From contig CAVXLD010000005.1 in NCBI GenBank assembly GCA_963762565.1, positions 320,001 to 384,000 of the forward strand: a stretch of 64,000 nucleotides of DNA, in the 5' to 3' direction. Shown one piece after another: positions 6,330-64,000 of this stretch. The notes beneath the pieces are model-generated. The model did not search any database. It was not told the origin of the DNA and was given only the letters and a program-made list of their open reading frames with translations. A program made the position numbers and the translations under genes. The stretch's first letter is position 1. Each line of letters starts with the position of its first letter. Source of the DNA: an uncultured Verrucomicrobiae bacterium (GTDB lineage Bacteria; Verrucomicrobiota; Verrucomicrobiia; Chthoniobacterales; JAFAMB01).

Positions 6330-6558
6330 GGAAGGAGCTAGGAGCTAGAAGGGGCCTGTCGTTCTCGTCCTCGTCGTCGTCCTCGTCCTCGATTGAGGCG
6401 TCTTTCGGCCGCTCGCACAATTCGTCCTTTTGGCGAGGCGGCTGGCTTTCGGGGAGACGGCTCGCCACGCCAAAATTTCGAGGACGAGGACGACGACGAG
6501 GACGAGAACGAAGCGCTGGGCGAGTGGCGCCCGAACTCCTAGCTCCTAGCTCCTTTCC
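6330..6558. repeat. Nested IR element: outer GGAGCTA arms, inner perfect 34 bp GAGGAC/GAC arms
   Basis: 6359-6392 is the exact reverse complement of 6478-6511; identical to the arms around the four-helix-bundle gene at 62067/62563. Confidence 0.92.
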
Positions 6559-53293: not shown

Positions 53294-54730
53294 TTACTCG
53301 GAAGCAGGCGCTTCGGTAGGCGTCGCGCGGCTGCCGTGCAGTAGGCGTTGCCAAAGCTTGCGACGGTCCCCGATGATCTTTTCAAACAGGTTACTCTCCG
53401 GGCGCATCAACGACCCGGAGACATGAAAGTCAAGGTAACGGCTGTGTCCATCGGTGGCAGGCTGGAAATTGTCTTCGAGCTCGTTCGGTATCTTCTGGGT
53501 TAGGAACTGACTCACCGTGAGCCGGCCATCCAAGGCCAACCGGTGAGCATCCTCGACTTGGCCGTTCAAGGTGATCTGACAATTTTTGGATACTAAGCGG
53601 ATCGAGTCGACCTGAATATTAGGCCCGACAACCCGGAAATTTGAGACTGCGCGTTCCAGATTCAACCGTTGCAATTCGTCAATCTGAGTCCAACGACCCA
53701 GTTCCTGCATTAACGGGTATTGGTCTAAATAAGCAGACTTGACTTCCAAGCTCCCAGTTCCGGAAAGCTTCGAAGAGTCGCGCACGGAGCCGGTGAGCTC
53801 GAATGATCCTTCCAGGGAACCATGTGCTCGATCCAAGAAATTGCTGGTCCGGCTTGCGACTTCGTTGAGATCGACCCCGGCAGCATGGAGCTGCAAATGG
53901 TAATCTACACCCGGCTTATTGAAATCGACGGTGAGCTCTCCGGTCAATTCGCCACCGGCGACGCTCGCGCTGATTTCGTTCAGGGTGAGCACGCCGGCCT
54001 GAAATTTCACCGGCGCACCGATGTCATCGATCGGAATCGCGTCCATTACTACGGCGTTTTCGGCATGGGCGCGGCCAAGATAATCCCCATGCCGGAAGTT
54101 CAGAATGCAATCCAGCCCGCGGACTAGCGCAACGTTCGAGCCGTCCGGATGCACAACCGTGATGGCAGCGTCTCTGAGCTTAAACTTTTGAATCTCCACC
54201 CAAAACCTGCGACTCAGCGTGTCACCCAAAGTTGCCGTTTGCGGTTGTGATTGCGGCTGTTGAACAGTCGCGGTTTCAGCTCGGGTGCCGCTAGTCACCG
54301 GCTGAGAAGCGGGCGACGGCGAGCTGGAGGTTTTCTTTACCTGTGCCGACACAGGCGGGTCCTCGTTCGACCCCATTGGGACGGTGATTTCTACGTGCTG
54401 CAGCAGGATCTCTCGAATGATGATCTTGTGGCGGAAAAACGCGTCGTAGTCGCACCGAACCTTGAGAGTTTTGGCCTGTAGCACCGGAGACGAAGTACCA
54501 GGTTTGCCCACGGTAACGGAGTCGAGATTTAGTCCGCCCCATGGCGTAAATGTGATGCGGAAAACGTCGATCGGCAGATCCAAGCTTTCGCTGACCGATG
54601 CACGTATCTCTCGCTGGATGCCGGGAGATTGGATGTAAAGGTTGATCGCGAGCAATGCGACGCCACAGAAGGCAATTACTCCCAGGATAAGGAATAACGC
54701 TATCCGAAAAACACGTTTCAAACGACTCAC
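53294..54730 (-). CDS. AsmA-like protein
   Basis: N-terminal TM anchor and beta-rich body (VAGGELTG, GSLEGSFELTG, FHVSGSLMRP); start uncertain. Confidence 0.7.
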   Translation of the reverse strand: MSRLKRVFRIALFLILGVIAFCGVALLAINLYIQSPGIQREIRASVSESLDLPIDVFRITFTPWGGLNLDSVTVGKPGTSSPVLQAKTLKVRCDYDAFFRHKIIIREILLQHVEITVPMGSNEDPPVSAQVKKTSSSPSPASQPVTSGTRAETATVQQPQSQPQTATLGDTLSRRFWVEIQKFKLRDAAITVVHPDGSNVALVRGLDCILNFRHGDYLGRAHAENAVVMDAIPIDDIGAPVKFQAGVLTLNEISASVAGGELTGELTVDFNKPGVDYHLQLHAAGVDLNEVASRTSNFLDRAHGSLEGSFELTGSVRDSSKLSGTGSLEVKSAYLDQYPLMQELGRWTQIDELQRLNLERAVSNFRVVGPNIQVDSIRLVSKNCQITLNGQVEDAHRLALDGRLTVSQFLTQKIPNELEDNFQPATDGHSRYLDFHVSGSLMRPESNLFEKIIGDRRKLWQRLLHGSRATPTEAPASE

Positions 54731-54767
54731 AGCCGCCAAGCCGCTATAATTAAGTCCAACGGTACCG

Positions 54768-55634
54768 ATGGACAAGCAGAAGGTGTGTATAATTTTCAAC
54801 CCGGCGGCGAGAGGAGGAAAAGCGGTTTCTCTCTACGCGGAGCTCAAAGAACTAGCCGGGAAGATCCCAATTTTCGGTGTGGCAGAGCCGGAATCAATCC
54901 TAGAGCTCGCTGCTATGGTGGCCAACCAAGGGTATGATCACATCATCGCTGCTGGCGGTGACGGCACCGTCAACGGCGTCATCAACGGTGTCGGCACGGC
55001 CGAGGTTATGTTGAGCGTTTTGCCGACGGGCACAATGAATGTTTTTGCCTACGAGCTCGGGATGCGTTCGTCGCAACTCAAGAAATGCTGGGAAATGATC
55101 GAGCTTGGTCGCCCCAGAGCCGTAGACTTGGTGTCGGCCAACCAGAATTATTTCGTGCAATTGGCCGGAGTCGGTTTAGACGCAATGACCGTTCAAGGGA
55201 CCGACTTGCAGATGCGGAAAACGATCGGTCCGGTAAGCTATCTTCTATCGGCTGCGAAAGTGATTGGTCGCCCAGCGCCAAACCTTCAGCTCCAGTTCGA
55301 GGACAATTCCGAAAGCGCTGGCTGTTTCGTCTTAATCGGCAACGGCCGCTTTTATGGAGGACCTTTTTCGTTGTTCCAAGACGCAAGAAACGACGACGGC
55401 TTGCTTGATGTGTTGATTTTTAAGCACCAGAGCTATCTCGACATTTTCCGATATTTGCAGGGAGTACTCATCGGAAATCACACGGACCTCCCCGATATCG
55501 AGTACCGGCAAGTCCCCTCGGTACGGGTGTTGAGCAGTCAGCCAGTCCCTTTAGAGCTGGACGGCGATGTATCCGGCTCGACCCCCGTACAATTTCGAAT
55601 CGCCCCCAAGAAACTGCAGGTTCTGGCGGGGTAA
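54768..55634 (+). CDS. Diacylglycerol/lipid kinase family (YegS/DagK)
   Basis: IFNPAARG, AGGDGT, PTGTMN, GVGLDA, NGRFYGG, DDGLLDV, ELDGD. Confidence 0.93.
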   Translation: MDKQKVCIIFNPAARGGKAVSLYAELKELAGKIPIFGVAEPESILELAAMVANQGYDHIIAAGGDGTVNGVINGVGTAEVMLSVLPTGTMNVFAYELGMRSSQLKKCWEMIELGRPRAVDLVSANQNYFVQLAGVGLDAMTVQGTDLQMRKTIGPVSYLLSAAKVIGRPAPNLQLQFEDNSESAGCFVLIGNGRFYGGPFSLFQDARNDDGLLDVLIFKHQSYLDIFRYLQGVLIGNHTDLPDIEYRQVPSVRVLSSQPVPLELDGDVSGSTPVQFRIAPKKLQVLAG

Positions 55635-55646
55635 GGGTGGGGGCGC

Positions 55647-56106
55647 TTCGTTCTCGTTCTCGTCCTCGTCGTCGTCCTCGAAACTCTGGTAGGGCGAGGC
55701 TCCAAAACGAAATAGGCCGCTGGCATACTTAGCGCCCGCGGCTGCTTCGTCTAATAGGTTACGCAAGCATGGCCGAGCCGGGGATGGCGCATGCCAAAGA
55801 TTGAGCGTGGTCTGTTGTCGCGAATCCCGTCTTGGTTCATCGCCCTGGTCGTGCCCCGCGTATTGGACCCAATCATACCGTCCCTGCGGGACGGATCGTG
55901 CGGGGTGCCCTTTCCAGGCATTTCATGCCAGGCTACCATCGTAAAGTCCCTCCGGGACAGAAACCTCACACGAGCCCGTCGCCGGGAGGGATCGCGTCCT
56001 CGCGATCCGTTGTTAACGAAGCCGAGGGCGTGTTCTAATCACCGGCGAAAATACGCCCTTGGGTTATGGTTTATCCTCGCGGCGCGCGGGGACGCGCGCC
56101 CTCCCC
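55647..56106. mobile_element. Non-coding composite REP-type element, copy 2
   Basis: Single GAGGAC-type arm + GGTAGGGCGAGGCTCC + GTCCC..GGGAC palindromes + GGGAGGGATCGCG doublet; matches 44576-45010. Confidence 0.8.
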
Positions 56107-56176
56107 GAATTGCGCCGCGTGTCCGACTTGCGGCAAAGCACGACAAAAAGCCCGGGGTACGCTAGAATATTGCCGG

Positions 56177-58927
56177 ATGAGCGGACCCCGTCGCGCCGAA
56201 GCTAGCGAAGGCGGAACCAGTCGCGCCGAAGCTGGCGAAGGCGGAAGTTTGCCCTGGACCCAGAGACTCTCCGCCCAGTGTTGGGACCAGCAGTTGGCCG
56301 AGGAAATATTGGCCAGGCTGGCTGAGTTTTCTCCTGATATCGAAACCCTTTACCGCCGATCGCCGAGTGAAGCGGTCGATCTTCTCAATTTTCTGTGTTT
56401 TTCGCCGGTTTCGCTGGAAAAGATCCGCCGGTCTCCAGATTTGCTGCTTTGGTTGGTCGCGCCCGATGTGCTCGACTTTCAGAAGGCAGAGCGACAAGGG
56501 AGGGACCGTGAGGGACCGGACCCCGATTTCAGGTCGCTGCGCGCTTGGAAATCGCAGGAGTTGTTGCGAGTGGCGTTTCGAGAAATCAGCGGGCTAGCTG
56601 GATTTGTCGAGACCACGCGCGACATAACGGAAATCGCTGAGCGATGTGTGCGCCAGGTTTATCGCGCGAGTCTTACGACGTTGAGCAGTCGATGGGGCGC
56701 GCCACAGACTGGCTTCGGCGTGCTAGGGATGGGGAAGCTTGGCGGCCGCGAACTGAACTATAGCTCGGATATAGATGTTATTTTTTTGTACGGAGAGGAA
56801 GGGTTCGTTAATCCGCGATTCAGTTACCACGAGTTTTTTACACGGTTGGCCGAAAAGATTGTGACCGAGTTCGCCGAGAGAGGCAACGCGCTCTTCCGAA
56901 TTGACTTGCGGTTGAGGCCGGAAGGCAGCTCTGGGCCATTAGTTCGGGGGCTTGCGAGCACAGAAAATTATTACGCCGGTTACGGCGAAACCTGGGAACG
57001 GATGGCGTTAATCAAAGCCAGAGGGATCGCAGGCGACCAAGAGCTCTTATACGAATTCGAACATCATCTTCAGCCGTTTATTTTTCCAAAAGCCGTTTCG
57101 GACGAATTACTGACCGAGATCGCGGCTGTGAAAGAACGGATCGAACGCGATTTGTTAGGAGTCGACGATCTGTATCGGAATGTGAAGCTCGGCTTTGGCG
57201 GGATCCGTGAAGTCGAGTTTATCGTGCAGACCCTGCAAGTGCTACATGGGGCTCGCAATGCCTTTCTGCAGGAACGTAATACCCTGGAAGCACTCAGCGC
57301 ATTGGCCGAGCTCGAGATTATGCCGCCCAAAGAGGTCAATGCGCTTCGGTCAGCCTATGTTTTCTTGCGTGCGGTCGAGCACCGTTTGCAGATTGTGCGA
57401 GAACAACAAACGCACACCTTGCCGGCGAAAACCGAGGATCGGTTTCTTTTGGCCAAGAGCCTGGGCCTGGATTCCGTAGAAGCGTTTGATCAACAGTACG
57501 GCGAGCAAACCTTCACCGTGCGAGTGATCTTTGATCGGTTGCTACAAAGCCGCTCAGGTGAAGTTGCCGAAAAGCGGGGGCGGGAATTTTTCTCTCAACC
57601 AATCGAGGCGAACCGAACCCTGGAACGACTCCAGGCGGGTCCGAGCGATATGCATGTATCGGCACGGACCCGTCGCCTGTACGCAAAGTTAGAACCGGAA
57701 CTACTCGGTTGGCTGGCCCAGATGGCGGATCCGGATGCAGCGTTGGGTCGGTTCGTTCGGTTTGTCGACAATTATGGGATCCGTGGCCTCCTATTCGAGA
57801 CGATGCTGGCCAATCCGAGATTGCTGGAGCTGTTGGTGCGTTTGTTTGATGCCAGCGCGGCATTTAGCGACTTGGCCATCCGGCGTCCGGAGTTGATCGA
57901 AGAAATTGCTCGTGGAAGATCATTGAATGCGACGGCTAGCGCCACCGAATACCTCGCCGCTCTTCAGGCTAATCCAGAGAACCTTGCGCCTTTGGAATGG
58001 GTAAGAGCCTTCCGCGAATCGGAGGTATTACGAATCTTACTCCGCGATATTTTGGGTACCGCCCCATTAGGTGAGTTGCAGGCCGAGATGACAAACTTGG
58101 CGGATGCTTGTGTCCGGTTCTGCCAAGGAAACATTCCTGGAGCGGACCGGCTGACTATCGTGACACTCGGAAAATTCGGTGGTCAAGAACTGCTTTATGG
58201 CGCCGACTTGGATGTCGTGTTTATCGGAGAAGAACCGGGACCGGCCGAACGGCTAATTGCGGCGCTCAGTGCCACCACTAACGCCGGCAGGGTATTCCCC
58301 ATCGATACCCGGTTACGGCCAGAGGGGGATAATGGGATGTTAGTAGTTACTATCAGTGGTTATGAGTCCTATTTCAACGGACGAGCGCAAACCTGGGAGC
58401 AACAAGCTTTGACCAAAGCCCGCGTTATCTCCGGCCCCGAAAGGGAGGAAGCAGAGAACCGGATCGCCAAGATTTGGGACCGCCTCCGGACCCGGCCTGA
58501 TACCAAGAGAGAAATTGCTGGTATGTATGAGCGGATTGTCAAGGCACGGGCCAAGAGCGGTGATTGGTACGAGTTTAAAACCGGCCGCGGTGGATTGATT
58601 GGTATAGAATTCCTGGTGCAATCGCTTGAGATTGAGCTCGGGGTTCGCGAACCAAATACATTGAAGGCCCTTGACCGGGTTGGGCGCCGGCTAGAGAAAG
58701 ACGAATCAGAGACCTTGGCGAACGATTACCTTTTCTATCGCCGAATTGAATCGATCCTGCGCCGGGTAAACAATCAATCCGTTTCTAGCATCCCGTTGCC
58801 GGAGCCCGAGCAGAAAAAACTCGCTTTACGGATGGGGTTTCGAGATCGCGAAACATTCCTGGATGACTACCGCCTGCGCCGCAGCCGCGACGATAAAATG
58901 GTGCGGAGATATTTTTATGGAGCGTAA
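56177..58927 (+). CDS. glnE: Glutamine synthetase adenylyltransferase/adenylyl-removing enzyme
   Basis: MGKLGGRELNYSSDID, IDLRLRPEG, WERMALIKAR, KLGFGGIREVEF; second domain GKFGGQEL.Y..DLD, IDTRLRP. Confidence 0.93.
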   Translation: MSGPRRAEASEGGTSRAEAGEGGSLPWTQRLSAQCWDQQLAEEILARLAEFSPDIETLYRRSPSEAVDLLNFLCFSPVSLEKIRRSPDLLLWLVAPDVLDFQKAERQGRDREGPDPDFRSLRAWKSQELLRVAFREISGLAGFVETTRDITEIAERCVRQVYRASLTTLSSRWGAPQTGFGVLGMGKLGGRELNYSSDIDVIFLYGEEGFVNPRFSYHEFFTRLAEKIVTEFAERGNALFRIDLRLRPEGSSGPLVRGLASTENYYAGYGETWERMALIKARGIAGDQELLYEFEHHLQPFIFPKAVSDELLTEIAAVKERIERDLLGVDDLYRNVKLGFGGIREVEFIVQTLQVLHGARNAFLQERNTLEALSALAELEIMPPKEVNALRSAYVFLRAVEHRLQIVREQQTHTLPAKTEDRFLLAKSLGLDSVEAFDQQYGEQTFTVRVIFDRLLQSRSGEVAEKRGREFFSQPIEANRTLERLQAGPSDMHVSARTRRLYAKLEPELLGWLAQMADPDAALGRFVRFVDNYGIRGLLFETMLANPRLLELLVRLFDASAAFSDLAIRRPELIEEIARGRSLNATASATEYLAALQANPENLAPLEWVRAFRESEVLRILLRDILGTAPLGELQAEMTNLADACVRFCQGNIPGADRLTIVTLGKFGGQELLYGADLDVVFIGEEPGPAERLIAALSATTNAGRVFPIDTRLRPEGDNGMLVVTISGYESYFNGRAQTWEQQALTKARVISGPEREEAENRIAKIWDRLRTRPDTKREIAGMYERIVKARAKSGDWYEFKTGRGGLIGIEFLVQSLEIELGVREPNTLKALDRVGRRLEKDESETLANDYLFYRRIESILRRVNNQSVSSIPLPEPEQKKLALRMGFRDRETFLDDYRLRRSRDDKMVRRYFYGA

Positions 58928-58936
58928 CACCTTTTC

Positions 58937-59214
58937 GGTGGGGCGAGGCTCCGGAACAACCCACCCTTTTGAACGAAGCCGCTTACCATGCTCGACTACT
59001 GGTTTGCGGTACCTAAGGACTGCCGAGCCGCTGTGTGTTCTGCCCACGCTGGAAACGGCTCGGCAGCGCAACTTGGTCTCGCCATCAGGATCCGGTCTAG
59101 ATCGATCGCTCTGCGAACGCCTGGCGGCCATTCCGGAGCCTCGCCCCACCAAAGAAGCAATTCGGATATGGCGCAACACTCCAGCACTCCAACGCTCCGG
59201 TACTCCATCACTCC
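58937..59214. repeat. REP doublet (20 bp perfect IR) plus CACTCCAN 8-mer arm between glnE and addB
   Basis: ggtggggcgaggctccggaa 58937-58956 / 59131-59150; 8-mers at 59175-59214. Confidence 0.85.
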
Positions 59215-59232
59215 GCGCGCCTCTAACCCCCC

Positions 59233-62034
59233 GTGCCTACTGACGTTTCCGTCCAACTTTTCAACCATGTCGACGACGCCTGGTCTGACGGACTGCGTGA
59301 CTGGTTAGACACAGGGTCCGAAGCAGCGTTGTCCGGTGAGAAAGTCTGGATGGTTTGCCGTTCGTTCGTCCAGGCAAATTGGTTACGCCGGCGCTTCCTG
59401 GAAGCGAACCAGACGTTGATGGGGGTCCGCTTTCTCGATCTACGGCGGCTCCGGCGCGAGCTCTGTTTGCGCGCGAGCCTCCCAACACCTTCTTTCGGCC
59501 GGGAAACATTGAGTCTGATCCTGCGAGCGAACATGACGGAGGCGGAAGCTGCATCGGCCTATGCCGGACAACTGCTCGATGCATTGGACAATCTTGCGGC
59601 CTGTGGCTGGCTCGACCGGTTTGGCGCCGATGCAGCCATGAATGTTCTCCACGTGACGCAGAGCCTACGGCCGGCGGTGCGTGGGATCATCGACTCAATG
59701 CTTTGGCGTCCACGGGTGGATCAAGCCTTGCTCGAAAAACAAGTCCAGATCCGAGACCTGCGTCTTGGTTTCTTTGGATTGGATGCTCAGTCTCTTGATC
59801 AACAGGCCTTGATCGCGGCGGCGGTATCCGCATCTGAGCAAACCCATTTTTGGATCGCTCAACCACTGGTAGCTCAGGATATTTTCATGCGTTGGATTGA
59901 GCGGCTGGAGACTCTTTTGCCCGCGACGGTCACGGTGGCTGCTAGCGAGGGTAAACCTCGGCCCTATGAGGATGTAGTTAGTCAGTTTGTTTATCCCACC
60001 CAGCCACCGGAGACGCTTCCTCGAGTCGTTCGCGGCGCTCGTTGGTCAGACCAGATCCGCGCGGTGGTCGCTGTCGTCCAAGAGGCATTTAGGCGTGGCT
60101 GCCGGGACGTGGCTATCGCCATTCCCCAAAGCTCACCATCCGGCGCCGCCATAGTCGAGGCTTTGATCGCCGCCGGGATTCCGGTCAGCGACGAGTTTCG
60201 CTCAAATGCGATCCTGGCTTTCTCGGAAAGAGTTCATCGTTGGTTAGCCGATTGGGTGGCCGGTCCGCGAACCCCAGAAAAGCTACTGCATTTGTTTGGC
60301 TTGCTCGCGCACGGACCGGAGAGTTACGGACGCTTTCGTAAGTATCTGTTAAAACAGTTTGATGACCGGCAGACACGCTTAGTTGCGGAGCTCGTGCCGG
60401 CCGACGGCGGCTATCTTTGGATCCGGGAACTAGTGGAATTCGGGCCGGACTGGCCGCCAAACGGGTCCTGGAAACAGCTGGATGCTAAATGGTCTGAAAC
60501 ACTTACCCGGTTTCAAGAATTCCTAAATCAGCATCGATCTTTTTTACGAGCGGCGCGCATCTCTCTCGAACCCTTACAACCAAATTGGGATGAAATTCAA
60601 AACGCGCTCGGAGACTTGGTCATTTCATCGAGCCTTTTTCTCCGGTTCGTGTCGGATTCTCTTTCGGGGCCAAGCCGGGTCGGGCATCCGGAAGCATCGC
60701 ACCGTTATGCTCCCGTCGTAGTCAGTACACCGGAACAACTTCACGCGACCAGCTGGGACGCCGTGGTTTTGGTTGATGGGATCGGCGATCTCTGGACGCG
60801 TCCGGTTGAACAGGATTCATTGCTTAATCAGGAATTCAGAGCCCAAACCCGCGATGAAGGATTCCTGCTGCCAACGATTCAGGATCAGGCATCGCTCCGG
60901 GAAGACGCCATTCTCCAACTAATTCAGCATGGACGCTCTTCCGTAACGGTTTGCGGGTACGCGAAAGAGGAGAGCGGTGAAGAAGTCGACGCGAATCGGT
61001 TTGTAACGTTTCTCGAACACAGCCTGCGCGCTGTCCCAGTCATATTCGAACCCGCTGCCATCGAGCCGAGGATTCTGTATCCATTGCTGGGGAAGATTCG
61101 CCAGGACCGCTGCGATCCGGAACATGGTTTTGACGAGTATCTCTTCGACTTCAGCAGCCTGGATCTGAAGCCGGATGCATGGCCGGCGTCGGAACTACAG
61201 AGAGCAATTGCGGCGCCCGGCACCTTTGCCTTTAGACAATTATTCGGTCTCAGACGGACTTGGGATCGCCGATTTGAACGCGATGGCCGGAGGACATTGG
61301 GAACCACGCTTCACGAGCTCATGAAGGTGATCCTGCGCAATCCGTTCGGAGACTTGTTCAAACAAGGTCTCGCAGATTTGAGCCAGAGTTCCGACTTAAA
61401 AGAGAGCCGCGGACCGAATGCCTTCCGGCACATTACTAAAATCGCGCTGAGATGGAATCTGCCGTCCGAGGATGCTTGGTGGCAATCGATCATCGCGAAA
61501 GCGGCGCACCTGGTTGAAGGGATGTCGCAGAAGCTAATGGAGTGGTTGGCAGACTTTCCTTACGGAATCTCGGAATATTCTTCGGGGGATAAAGTCGTGC
61601 CGGAACTGCAACTGTTTTTGAAAGGCCGCTTTGATCTTTTACTAGCCAATGTTGACCACATTGAGGGGGCCGACATTGTTATAATCGACTTCAAAACCAC
61701 GAACTCGATTCGGCGCTTCAACCCGGATACTGGCGAAGGTTTCCAGATCGTCGCCTACACATTGTTAGCCAAAGTAATGGGCGCGGCGCATTGCGCTCAG
61801 TGCGTGTTCACGCCGGCCAACGCGAAAGAATTAGATCTTAATAAAGGAGCTGACGAGATTGTGGCGAAACTCGACGAATTGTCTTGGATCCAAGAGACGA
61901 ACTGCTTCGGTCACGCTCCGTTGTTAAAGCAGGAATTTGCTATCAACGAAGCGCTGCCTTTAGCGACACTAACTATCCCTGTTTGGGTTTTGAGGAAGAA
62001 ACGGGCGTTGATGCTAGAGGGGATTGTGGATTGA
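59233..62034 (+). CDS. addB: AddB-like protein with C-terminal PD-(D/E)xK nuclease
   Basis: LGTTLHELM, KGRFDLL, IIDFKT, Q...Y; sits upstream of a UvrD-type helicase. Confidence 0.7.
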   Translation: MPTDVSVQLFNHVDDAWSDGLRDWLDTGSEAALSGEKVWMVCRSFVQANWLRRRFLEANQTLMGVRFLDLRRLRRELCLRASLPTPSFGRETLSLILRANMTEAEAASAYAGQLLDALDNLAACGWLDRFGADAAMNVLHVTQSLRPAVRGIIDSMLWRPRVDQALLEKQVQIRDLRLGFFGLDAQSLDQQALIAAAVSASEQTHFWIAQPLVAQDIFMRWIERLETLLPATVTVAASEGKPRPYEDVVSQFVYPTQPPETLPRVVRGARWSDQIRAVVAVVQEAFRRGCRDVAIAIPQSSPSGAAIVEALIAAGIPVSDEFRSNAILAFSERVHRWLADWVAGPRTPEKLLHLFGLLAHGPESYGRFRKYLLKQFDDRQTRLVAELVPADGGYLWIRELVEFGPDWPPNGSWKQLDAKWSETLTRFQEFLNQHRSFLRAARISLEPLQPNWDEIQNALGDLVISSSLFLRFVSDSLSGPSRVGHPEASHRYAPVVVSTPEQLHATSWDAVVLVDGIGDLWTRPVEQDSLLNQEFRAQTRDEGFLLPTIQDQASLREDAILQLIQHGRSSVTVCGYAKEESGEEVDANRFVTFLEHSLRAVPVIFEPAAIEPRILYPLLGKIRQDRCDPEHGFDEYLFDFSSLDLKPDAWPASELQRAIAAPGTFAFRQLFGLRRTWDRRFERDGRRTLGTTLHELMKVILRNPFGDLFKQGLADLSQSSDLKESRGPNAFRHITKIALRWNLPSEDAWWQSIIAKAAHLVEGMSQKLMEWLADFPYGISEYSSGDKVVPELQLFLKGRFDLLLANVDHIEGADIVIIDFKTTNSIRRFNPDTGEGFQIVAYTLLAKVMGAAHCAQCVFTPANAKELDLNKGADEIVAKLDELSWIQETNCFGHAPLLKQEFAINEALPLATLTIPVWVLRKKRALMLEGIVD

Positions 62035-62066
62035 ACCCAAGATATAGAATAACCCGTGACCTCTTA

Positions 62067-62598
62067 ATCGTTCTCGTCCTCGTCGTCGTCCTCGTCCTCG
62101 ATTTTGACCCTGCGTTTTCCACCTCCCATTAACTCACCATTCCACATCATGTTCGACCACGAAAAACTCGACGTCTACCAAATCGAACTGAAATTCCTCG
62201 GTTGGGCAACAGAGTTTTTGGTCGAATTGGCCGAGGTACCGTCTCCTGTAAATAAACGAGAGCTATCCGATCAACTCGATCGTGCGAGTCTTTCCGCGCT
62301 CTTAGACACCGCCGAAGGCAACGGAAGACGTCAGGGCAAACAACGTGCTAAATTCTTCGATGACGCTCGTAGATCAGCATTTGAATGCGCGGCGTGTTTG
62401 GACGCATCGGTGGCGAAGGAATTGTCGACGGTGGAGCGGATTCAGCCCGGCAAAGACCTGTTGCAGCGTATCGTGGCGATGCTGTCGAAACTGGTCGAGA
62501 GGTTCGATCCTGATTCGTACCGCGTGAGGGAAGGTGAAAACGAGCTGGGTGAGGCGGAACCTATCGAGGACGAGGACGACGACGAGGACGAGAACGAT
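62067..62598. mobile_element. Intervening element: perfect 36 bp inverted repeats enclosing a four-helix-bundle gene
   Basis: 62067-62102 is the exact reverse complement of 62563-62598. Confidence 0.8.
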
Positions 62599-62625
62599 AC
62601 GCGAGGGGGCGGGGCACATTCATGA
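62149..62625 (+). CDS. Four-helix-bundle protein (23S rRNA intervening-sequence protein family)
   Basis: MFDHEKLDVYQ, DQLDRASLS...AEG, FF..AR.S..ECAACLD, RIVAMLSKL. Confidence 0.9.
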   Translation: MFDHEKLDVYQIELKFLGWATEFLVELAEVPSPVNKRELSDQLDRASLSALLDTAEGNGRRQGKQRAKFFDDARRSAFECAACLDASVAKELSTVERIQPGKDLLQRIVAMLSKLVERFDPDSYRVREGENELGEAEPIEDEDDDEDENDTRGGGAHS

Positions 62626-64000
62626 GCCTAAAATCCGACCAAGACGCCCGCGATCGTTTTCGCACCGAACTCGACCGAAACTTCTGCGTCGTAGCAGGAG
62701 CAGGATCCGGCAAGACCACAGCCATCGTGGAACGGATCTGCCAATTGGCTTTGCGAGACCGTAGCGCACTCCGGCGCCTAGTGGTGGTCACGTACACGAA
62801 AAGTGCCGCTATCGAATTCAAGTCCCGCTCCCGGCAAAAATTGTTGCGTACGGCTTCGGAACCCGATGCGCTGGATTATCTGCGTGCGCTGGAACAGGCC
62901 TATTTCGGCACGATCCATGGATTCTGCTTCAACTTGATTCGTGAGTTTCGCAGCCGGCTTCTGATTCCGGAACAACCCCGGGTACCGACCGAGGACGAAC
63001 AGAACGTGCTCTGGGAAACCTTTGTGACCGATTCCCGTGAATTGAATGAATTGCTGGAGCACCCAGTCACTCGCTCTTTGCTTAGAGTCTGCACGTTGGC
63101 TGAGCTGTTATATATCGCCAAGAGATTCCGCCCGAGCCTGCCTCGTACCGAGCCGGCCAAACGGATGCCGATTCCAGATGGCGCCCGGACCAGAACGGCT
63201 GTCGTTGCCAAAGGACGATCGGAGAACGTTAAAAAGAGAACCATCGCGTCGTTAGATGCGTTTGCCGCTACCATGTCGGCTGATGCCGGGTTCAGCCTGT
63301 TGCCGGTTTGTGACAGTACCGGGGGAAAACTGATCGAGGCGTTCAAACACGACATGGCGCCGCTGATAAAATGGCTGCAGGAAGGCGCTGAGTGGTTCGC
63401 TGATCGGTTAGCCCGGAGCTTTCGTAACCGCTGCCTGCAAGAAGGCATCTTGAGTTTCAACAACCAGATCGATGTTTGCCTCGAGCTGTTACAACAGTCG
63501 GACATTCTTGATCAACTACGGCGTCGCGAATTCATCGTGATCGTCGATGAAGCCCAGGATACCGACTCGCGCATGTTCCAGATTTTTGTGGAACTAACCA
63601 GATCGCCAAACGAACGCTTTGAGAGCTGGCCCGATGCCGGAAAACCTCCATTACCGGGCAGATTCTGTTTAGTGGGCGATCCGAGGCAAACCATTTTCGA
63701 GAGGGGTATGACCAGCCGGTTCGCTAAACTCTGTAAATATTTCGGAAAGGGCGATGGAGGTGAATTGCTTCGTTTTAATGTCACTTATCGATGCGCGGAA
63801 ACGGTAGCCCGCCGGATCAACGAGTTATTCGCTTCCCATGAAGTCGAAGACGTGCCTTTGGACGATCTGGCTGCTCAGGCCGAAGCACCGCAAGGATCTG
63901 TTGGCCGGTTGCTATTCAATCCAGGGCAACCAATAGACAGTGAAGACGAGATCGAGCCGTTGTTAGTTGAATGCGATGCCGTCGCCCAGTGGTTAGCTCG
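62622..64000 (+). CDS. addA: AddA-like UvrD helicase (partial; runs off the window, absent from the ORF track)
   Basis: MSLKSDQDARDRF..., AGAGSGKT, VTYT..AA.E, GTIHGFC, IVDEAQD, VGDPRQ.I, YRC. Confidence 0.85.
   Translation, partial: MSLKSDQDARDRFRTELDRNFCVVAGAGSGKTTAIVERICQLALRDRSALRRLVVVTYTKSAAIEFKSRSRQKLLRTASEPDALDYLRALEQAYFGTIHGFCFNLIREFRSRLLIPEQPRVPTEDEQNVLWETFVTDSRELNELLEHPVTRSLLRVCTLAELLYIAKRFRPSLPRTEPAKRMPIPDGARTRTAVVAKGRSENVKKRTIASLDAFAATMSADAGFSLLPVCDSTGGKLIEAFKHDMAPLIKWLQEGAEWFADRLARSFRNRCLQEGILSFNNQIDVCLELLQQSDILDQLRRREFIVIVDEAQDTDSRMFQIFVELTRSPNERFESWPDAGKPPLPGRFCLVGDPRQTIFERGMTSRFAKLCKYFGKGDGGELLRFNVTYRCAETVARRINELFASHEVEDVPLDDLAAQAEAPQGSVGRLLFNPGQPIDSEDEIEPLLVECDAVAQWLA

Follow-up and report, generated by a model that had tools for sequence, protein, structure and literature searches.

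The window, which is the whole 64-kb stretch of DNA that was analysed (64,000 nucleotides of the genome called G000 here; other G numbers denote the relatives with which it was compared), carries near its right end a small gene enclosed by two inverted arms, in the following termed the cassette. It lies between two larger genes, for which we infer the names addB and addA from a PD-(D/E)XK C-terminus and a UvrD N-terminus, respectively; the best NCBIfam matches of the AddA-like protein, which is truncated by the window end, scored below the cut-off. The features, in window coordinates, are:

59233..62034, strand +: upstream host gene, AddB-like, with a C-terminal PD-(D/E)XK domain
62067..62102, strand ".": left arm, an array of five TCGTCC-type hexamers that is perfectly complementary to the right arm
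62103..62148, strand +: leader, from the left arm to the start codon, in which CCACCTCCCA is conserved in G000, G003 and G004
62149..62625, strand +: four-helix-bundle gene (PF05635/TIGR02436), 158 aa, consisting of a 125-aa core and an acidic tail through the right arm
62563..62598, strand ".": right arm, five hexamer units (GAGGAC type), commonest arm variant of G000
62599..62625, strand +: tail that follows the right arm and leads up to the ATGA shared with the addA-like gene
62622..64000, strand +: downstream host gene for an AddA-like helicase of the UvrD type, incomplete at the window end
6359..6511, strand ".": gene-less inverted pair with the same two arms as the cassette and an unrelated 87-nt interior
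55648..55680, strand -: solo arm of the cassette's hexamer family, directly after a lipid kinase gene and upstream of glnE

The cassette arms are 36 nt long each and 100% complementary, with 460 nt between them, and the exact reverse complementarity of 62067-62102 and 62563-62598 reported in an earlier note on this DNA was thus confirmed. The ORF extends from the ATG at 62149 to the TGA at 62625, the right arm being translated as IEDEDDDEDEND, and its TGA overlaps the ATG at 62622 of the UvrD-type helicase gene (ATGA). Both the reading through the right arm and this overlap had been noted before and stand, while the translational coupling said to be kept does not extend to the addB side, where 114 nt separate the end of the addB-like gene from the ATG of the cassette gene; the overlap with addA is the only one. 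In G004 a frameshift in the right arm abolishes it, and in both G003 and G004 addB stops at the TAA with which the left arm begins (62067). In G002 and G005, too, a solo arm is followed by a tail of comparable length. The 36-bp stem was present in both the MFE and the centroid structure of the predicted transcript fold (z -10.4), and the leader sequence CCACCTCCCA was predicted to extend it inward, with bulges. No promoter or terminator consensus was found in 61700-62800, and the cassette gene therefore probably travels on the operon transcript. Neither rRNA nor any other credible Rfam family was found in 54000-64000 (one chance match), and a profile search of the 64-kb window with RVT_1 and Y1_Tnp gave no match, in agreement, for these two families, with the earlier statement that the window contains no reverse transcriptase (RT) or transposase. 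Between glnE and addB (58934-59153), a 23-nt inverted repeat (96%) of a different repeat family was observed, with 174 nt between its arms.

The cassette protein matched PF05635 with 51 bits (cut-off 33.8) and TIGR02436 with 51.4 bits (cut-off 24), and its predicted model (pLDDT 93.8) consists of four long helices (residues 4-29, 37-58, 63-89 and 95-119). The top Foldseek matches of the model were Xcc0516 (PDB 2GSC) and BT_0352 (PDB 2RLD), at TM 0.70-0.81 and 15-25% identity; both of these best structural matches are without assigned function. Superposition on Avd (PDB 4DWL, 8UB7) gave TM 0.71-0.75 at 7-9% identity, so that both the four-helix-bundle family and the Avd-like fold, first proposed from the sequence, held up. 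Structures have been solved for the large PF05635 family, which to our knowledge has no known function. The 125-aa core contains 19 K+R and 22 D+E and is not net basic. The gene is under purifying selection (dN/dS 0.02-0.07). At two near-invariant positions at which the alignment has at least 90% N and G, the window allele carries D53 and R75, a combination found in this allele alone, all 16 other cluster members listed having N53 and G75; the window copy may be impaired or mis-sequenced. In 16/16 of the cluster members listed, the arm is in the same frame, running to a similar stop, a count biased by the sampling since frameshifted forms would drop from a 90% cluster. A functional role for the acidic tail was considered and rejected: in homologues the arm is translated in other frames (RTRTRT) or the reading frame closes ahead of it, and the tail is thus taken as read-through. 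Among the 120 best longer homologues of 1129 (P0001-P0120), no fusion to an enzyme or RT was found, all of them being tandem double bundles; they make up a large group of proteins of 243-299 aa with two successive four-helix-bundle domains.

Hexamer arrays of the cassette type numbered from 221 (strict) to 271 (loose) in G000, and 9 of 270 arms were located inside long ORFs. Neighbouring arrays less than 1.5 kb apart formed 63 pairs, 53 of which share the inverted polarity of the cassette, most of these with a spacing of 78-130 nt. No arm variant is commoner than that of the cassette (28 of 271 arrays), its 34-nt core occurring 27 times in the genome, and the perfect match between the two arms is therefore not evidence of recent insertion; two randomly drawn arms were identical in 3% of draws, and identical cores were present in 3 of the 53 pairs. 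Solo arms were divided 53 versus 42 between the strands, with no clear preference. Many other words are also present in the genome as short tandem arrays, approximately 2,480 in all, and close pairs were essentially of one polarity for each word family tested (for example, 41/41 and 21/21). The upper mode of array length was found at five hexamers, four heptamers (two families), four octamers or three nonamers, that is, 27-32 nt, with longer tails beyond this mode in some word families. As the unit-count peaks differ with word length, it is the length of the arm, not the number of units, that looks constrained. The idea that a pentamer binds five units was discarded, since hexamer arms peak at five but heptamer arms at 3-4 and 9-mer arms at 3.

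The earlier note saw in the cassette the best candidate for a full-length version of the hairpin elements. The cassette does share its arms with them and carries the dominant variant of the genome, but the interiors are unrelated: none of 52 other pair interiors matched the interior of this cassette or those of 15 homologous cassettes, the comparison leaving only chance matches of 12-15 nt and one out-of-frame tblastx match. The origin of gene-less hairpins as internal deletions (MITE-like derivatives) of the cassette was rejected in the absence of any shared interior (0/52). Eight pair interiors of about 290-360 nt (for example, C3:726219 and C1:931608) contain GGAGGGGAGCCGCTTT-type REP doublets nested inside hexamer pairs, and the same type of REP flanks a weak Y1 match at C1:579877 of G000.

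Inverted arms flank all seven PF05635 genes of G000 that score above the cut-off, with six different words, two of the genes sharing GTAAGCA. Out of 55 homologous loci found, 44 were scored (11 partial ones were dropped, and several of the 44 are close kin), of which 37 were flanked by inverted arms at the score threshold; distant-flank controls over the 44 homologous and six own loci gave 1/49 and 2/49. Arms also flanked 27 of 29 family members in an independent sample, which was drawn across the order according to Pfam score (control 1 of 25), and as a background, 181 of 4385 crudely called genes (4%) scored as arm-flanked. The proposal that homologues, too, carry inverted arms was thus upheld by the flanks of the family members in each of the three sets (7/7, 37/44 and 27/29).

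In a FastTree phylogeny, hexamer-armed proteins formed one branch (support 100) spanning about ten phyla, with hexamer labels assigned by eye and the hexamer clade collected by similarity to the query, and the other protein clades mostly had 7-8-base words. As shown by this distribution, gene clade and word length are inherited together across phyla. One gene copy of the hexamer clade was present per genome here. As to the abundance of arms relative to the gene, 26 arms were counted in G012, where no cognate gene was found, the gene occurs without arms of this pattern in G030, and 77 arms remain in G002, which has lost the gene; that arm number follows gene presence was not retained, the relationship being weak within the genus and absent outside it. 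Ten related Verrucomicrobiota genomes (L037-L041, L043-L047) keep the cassette at one other common junction, with the arms in the RTRTRT frame, and the genes beside it are, judging from motifs, presumably those of a dihydrolipoamide acyltransferase and a dehydrogenase.

Several loci depart from the simple layout. The GTAAGCA-armed paralogue at C3:44245-44836 of G000 is interrupted by about 250 bp of inserted sequence, the translation of which resembles one inside a hairpin at C7:221180-221625. A weaker family member at C5:395495-395713 is longer and has a GTGGAC-type hairpin in front of it, and another, at C3:960262-960345, is truncated and follows a GGAGTTCA array. At L049/L088 (G016:C1:1305484-1307495) and at L030 the gene is flanked by whole gene-less doublets, and at the G016 locus the arms recur around the gene at steps of about 260 bp, like a tandem array of hairpins.

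Genes of the GxxExxY family (PF13366) were found inside inverted arms of roughly 9-base words at 10 of 12 loci in G000, the last two of those given below looking broken:

GxxExxY loci with inverted arms, G000: C1:116913, C11:163341, C11:64902, C1:643983, C11:151267, C7:520854, C1:1445043, C10:374389, C1:653061, C15:24328

Three 21-nt arm variants (A/B/C) were counted 0/69/5 times in G000, 60/4/25 in G003, 11/16/16 in G004, 43/23/18 in G005 and 7/0/1 in G002. The cassette arms are both B in G000 and both A in G003, in each case the local commonest variant, and in G004 the left arm, which is intact, is C. The covariation of the two arms seen locally in G003 was dismissed, as it is explained by the genome-wide variant. 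For 21 of 40 G003 stretches with variant A, a two-sided orthologous junction was identified in G000; 12 of these junctions hold an intact hexamer array and 9 do not, several of the latter holding a pair of a different word. This turnover at orthologous junctions shows that arms are rewritten or replaced genome-wide, the cassette either following or leading.

Among 40 relatives searched, an addA match was obtained in 24. The cassette was present at the addB-addA junction in 2 of these (G003 and G004) and absent in 21, G001 being without a call; the gene is accordingly not stably syntenic with addAB, an arrangement that would have counted against the reading in the earlier note. In many outgroups addB runs directly up to addA or overlaps it, and in a few the gap is filled by other repeat families. 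In G002 and G005 the gene and the left arm are gone and a solo right arm is kept, split by two other repeats. Nested in this solo arm (junctions L002 and L005 of G002 and G005, respectively) are a palindromic element of about 250 bp (CCCAGGGTTAAAACCC type), the inner part of which is inverted between L002 and L005, and a second short repeat. The addA DNA tree placed G002 and G005 inside the cassette carriers (97/95, compared with only 80/80 in the protein tree), which implies that these two and the carriers, five genomes together, go back to a single gain, with a single imprecise loss thereafter.

Fourfold-site divergence of the G000 cassette gene was 0.52 and 0.60, relative to 0.33-0.43 in the flanks, and 0.37 between the G003 and G004 genes, with no excess over the flanks. 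Faster synonymous change as a general trait was rejected, a second clade showing only a weak trend (0.50 versus 0.41 and 0.42; 30 of 45 pairs, which are non-independent). In soil metagenome runs X8 and X9, the addA start is joined to alleles that share 83% identity with the window gene (65-69 differences over about 405 nt), this linkage consisting of short overlaps between contigs; the addA and addB pieces next to them in X8 match the window at 98% and 96% identity, at similar depth. This pattern points to probable allele replacement by recombination at this site. No joint or clean empty site was found in the contigs of six metagenome runs (repeats skipped), and no target duplication was evident by eye at the junction.

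Three RT loci were found in G000, one of them intact (group II intron maturase type) and two fragmentary or broken, and all three are at least 6.7 kb from any arm; the intact reverse transcriptase/maturase (L095:3501-4862, on C11) is 453 aa long. Twelve Y1_Tnp matches were obtained, all of them at least 2.6 kb away from the nearest hexamer arm; different palindromes of their own flank several of the Y1 genes. The RT partner envisaged in the earlier note was thus not borne out, the intact RT being of the group II intron type, and neither was an RT or HUH transposase acting in trans, as no RT locus or Y1 match in the genome was linked to arms; an RT or RAYT partner was rejected for G000. An RNase III gene is present. 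In a test for an RNA-level stem, 61 arm mismatches were G·U on the sense strand, 54 were G·U on the antisense strand and 195 were neither, with no sense excess, the alignments including some sequence beyond the arms.

We read the cassette, with confidence that is about evenly balanced, as a non-autonomous fold-back unit (arm-gene-arm) that would have settled at gene junctions and been swapped, eroded and homogenised by recombination at the arms, being held in place by a protein under selection that probably binds its own arms. Since the word is dispersed in pairs that contain no gene, and cassette and word change together, a hitch-hiking element without an enzyme of its own is likely. The unit would have entered the addB-addA junction whole, and recombination between or at the fold-back arms would account for its copying, swapping and loss, any enzyme coming from elsewhere in the genome; the best candidates for cutting in trans would be the GxxExxY nuclease-like proteins, judged only by their layout, which has the same packaging. 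The cassette protein may form a ring like Xcc0516, the 2GSC structure of which is described as a homopentamer (PMC4990558), BT_0352 and Avd, and may bind the folded arms, which would explain the lasting pairing of gene and word. A stem of about 30 bp could make the insert tolerable to the host, perhaps by serving as a site for RNase III, and the ATGA overlap could restore addA translation. The fold-back explanation is weakened by the fact that no movement was seen and that the loss in G002/G005 was imprecise, as well as by arm abundance tracking the gene loosely and by a core that is not net basic, unlike the Avd barrel; a long-lived cassette at fixed sites (ten genomes at one junction) also fits a host function. 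A wider version of the fold-back reading, which we offer only tentatively, is that of a transposase-free class in which each small-gene clade (four-helix bundle or GxxExxY) would own a short word and a gene-bearing master copy would write its arm variant into hundreds of gene-less hairpins, rRNA intervening sequences (IVSs) being members that landed in 23S rRNA.

Alternatively, the cassette could be a domesticated mRNA-processing device, in which RNase III would cut the 36-bp stem and so separate the addB and addA messages, the protein regulating word-bearing transcripts. The purifying selection on the gene and its long retention would suit this. The genome has the RNase III gene, the approximately 30-nt arms of several families resemble the RNase III-cut 28-bp stem of the Coxiella IVS (PMC4990558), the lack of a promoter or terminator consensus in 61700-62800 probably puts the gene on the operon transcript, and the arm frame is kept to a similar stop in 16/16 listed cluster members (biased by the 90% cluster). 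We nevertheless regard such a device as unlikely, given arm mismatches that are 61 G·U in the sense, 54 in the antisense and 195 in neither, solo arms without clear strand preference (53 versus 42), a junction lacking the cassette in 21 relatives, two close ones having lost it, and word families that replace one another at orthologous junctions. It is improbable that the cassette is a retroelement satellite, its Avd-like protein bringing arm-bearing RNA to an RT encoded elsewhere: the fold similarity to Avd (TM 0.71-0.75), the binding of an RNA stem-loop by the five protomers of Avd (bioRxiv 10.1101/2023.10.23.563531) and the three RT loci agree with it, but identity to Avd is 7-9%, the intact RT has a group II intron maturase domain and the others are broken, all at least 6.7 kb from an arm, no RT fusion occurs among the 120 best longer homologues of 1129, and the pair interiors are not derived from the cassette.

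The arms might alternatively be REP-like and moved by RAYT-type HUH transposases, with the gene as chance cargo of a REPIN; inverted doublets and singlets make up the overall layout in REPINs as well (PMC3116915), 12 Y1_Tnp matches are present, and the homologues at L030 and L049 are flanked by whole gene-less doublets. With no Y1 gene within 2.6 kb of a hexamer arm, several Y1 genes having different palindromes of their own, arms built of tandem words and not palindromes, and a gene-word pairing that holds across phyla, we consider this highly improbable. That an ordinary small gene was caught between arrays piled up by chance in a repeat-rich genome could be argued from the roughly 2,480 short tandem arrays and the 181 of 4385 crude genes that are also arm-flanked. 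This last view is largely refuted, and we give it hardly any weight, as 7/7, 37/44 and 27/29 family members are flanked compared with a 4% background and one or two matches per distant-flank control, and word length follows the protein clade.

The fixed pairing of protein clade and word suggests a direct assay, in which each protein should prefer its own word. The locus offers filled and emptied sites in close relatives, seemingly swapped alleles at one site, and a genome-wide turnover of arm variants tracked by the cassette, and the question on which it bears is the origin of rRNA intervening sequences and of dispersed 6-9-base bacterial repeat arrays.

No description of a gene-plus-arm cassette outside rRNA was found in a search of openly accessible article texts. 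TAACTGA repeats are the subject of PMC4679880, where the PF05635 gene family does not figure, and in PMC5524665 the protein appears only in annotation tables. In the heptamer arrays of Xanthomonas (GGGAATC; Rehm et al. 2015, PMC4692102), the intergenic location, the many convergent inverted pairs (70 in Xcc) and the described lack of linkage to insertion sequences are as in the arms studied here; in that description the arrays are possible G-quadruplex sites and no cargo gene is named, whereas the hexamer here is without a G-tract. Avd shares the four-helix-bundle fold (TM approximately 0.73) and offers a precedent for the binding of an RNA stem-loop, in which each of its five protomers takes part (bioRxiv 10.1101/2023.10.23.563531). 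It differs in sequence (7-9% identity), in having a positively charged barrel according to the same preprint, where the cassette core is not net basic, and in its RT, no DGR-type RT being linked to the cassette.

The ORF-bearing 23S IVSs of Coxiella burnetii (helix 45) and Leptospira have an S23p ORF in the loop of a terminal stem, which in Coxiella is 28 bp long and cut by RNase III (PMC4990558), and the IVS-like layout ascribed to the cassette in the earlier note, with a long terminal stem around an S23p-family ORF, does match them. The same protein family is found in the loop, the terminal stem measures 28 bp there and 36 bp here, the sizes are similar (428-444 nt there, 532 nt here), and tandem heptamers are present at the 5' end of the Coxiella element. 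In contrast to an IVS, the cassette is located between protein-coding genes and not in rRNA, so that excision without re-ligation would split an mRNA; its gene is under purifying selection, while S23p is judged in PMC4990558 to be decaying and probably not expressed; and its arms are part of a genome-wide repeat family. With the REPIN/RAYT system (Bertels and Rainey 2011, PMC3116915) it has in common a gene flanked by its own repeat, which also occurs as intergenic inverted doublets and singlets. The cassette gene, however, encodes a four-helix bundle without known catalytic site, not an HUH transposase, and the arms are tandem hexamer words, not palindromes, the Y1 genes having other repeats. 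The cassette is thus neither an rRNA IVS nor a REPIN, departing from each in a defining property, yet it is built like both.
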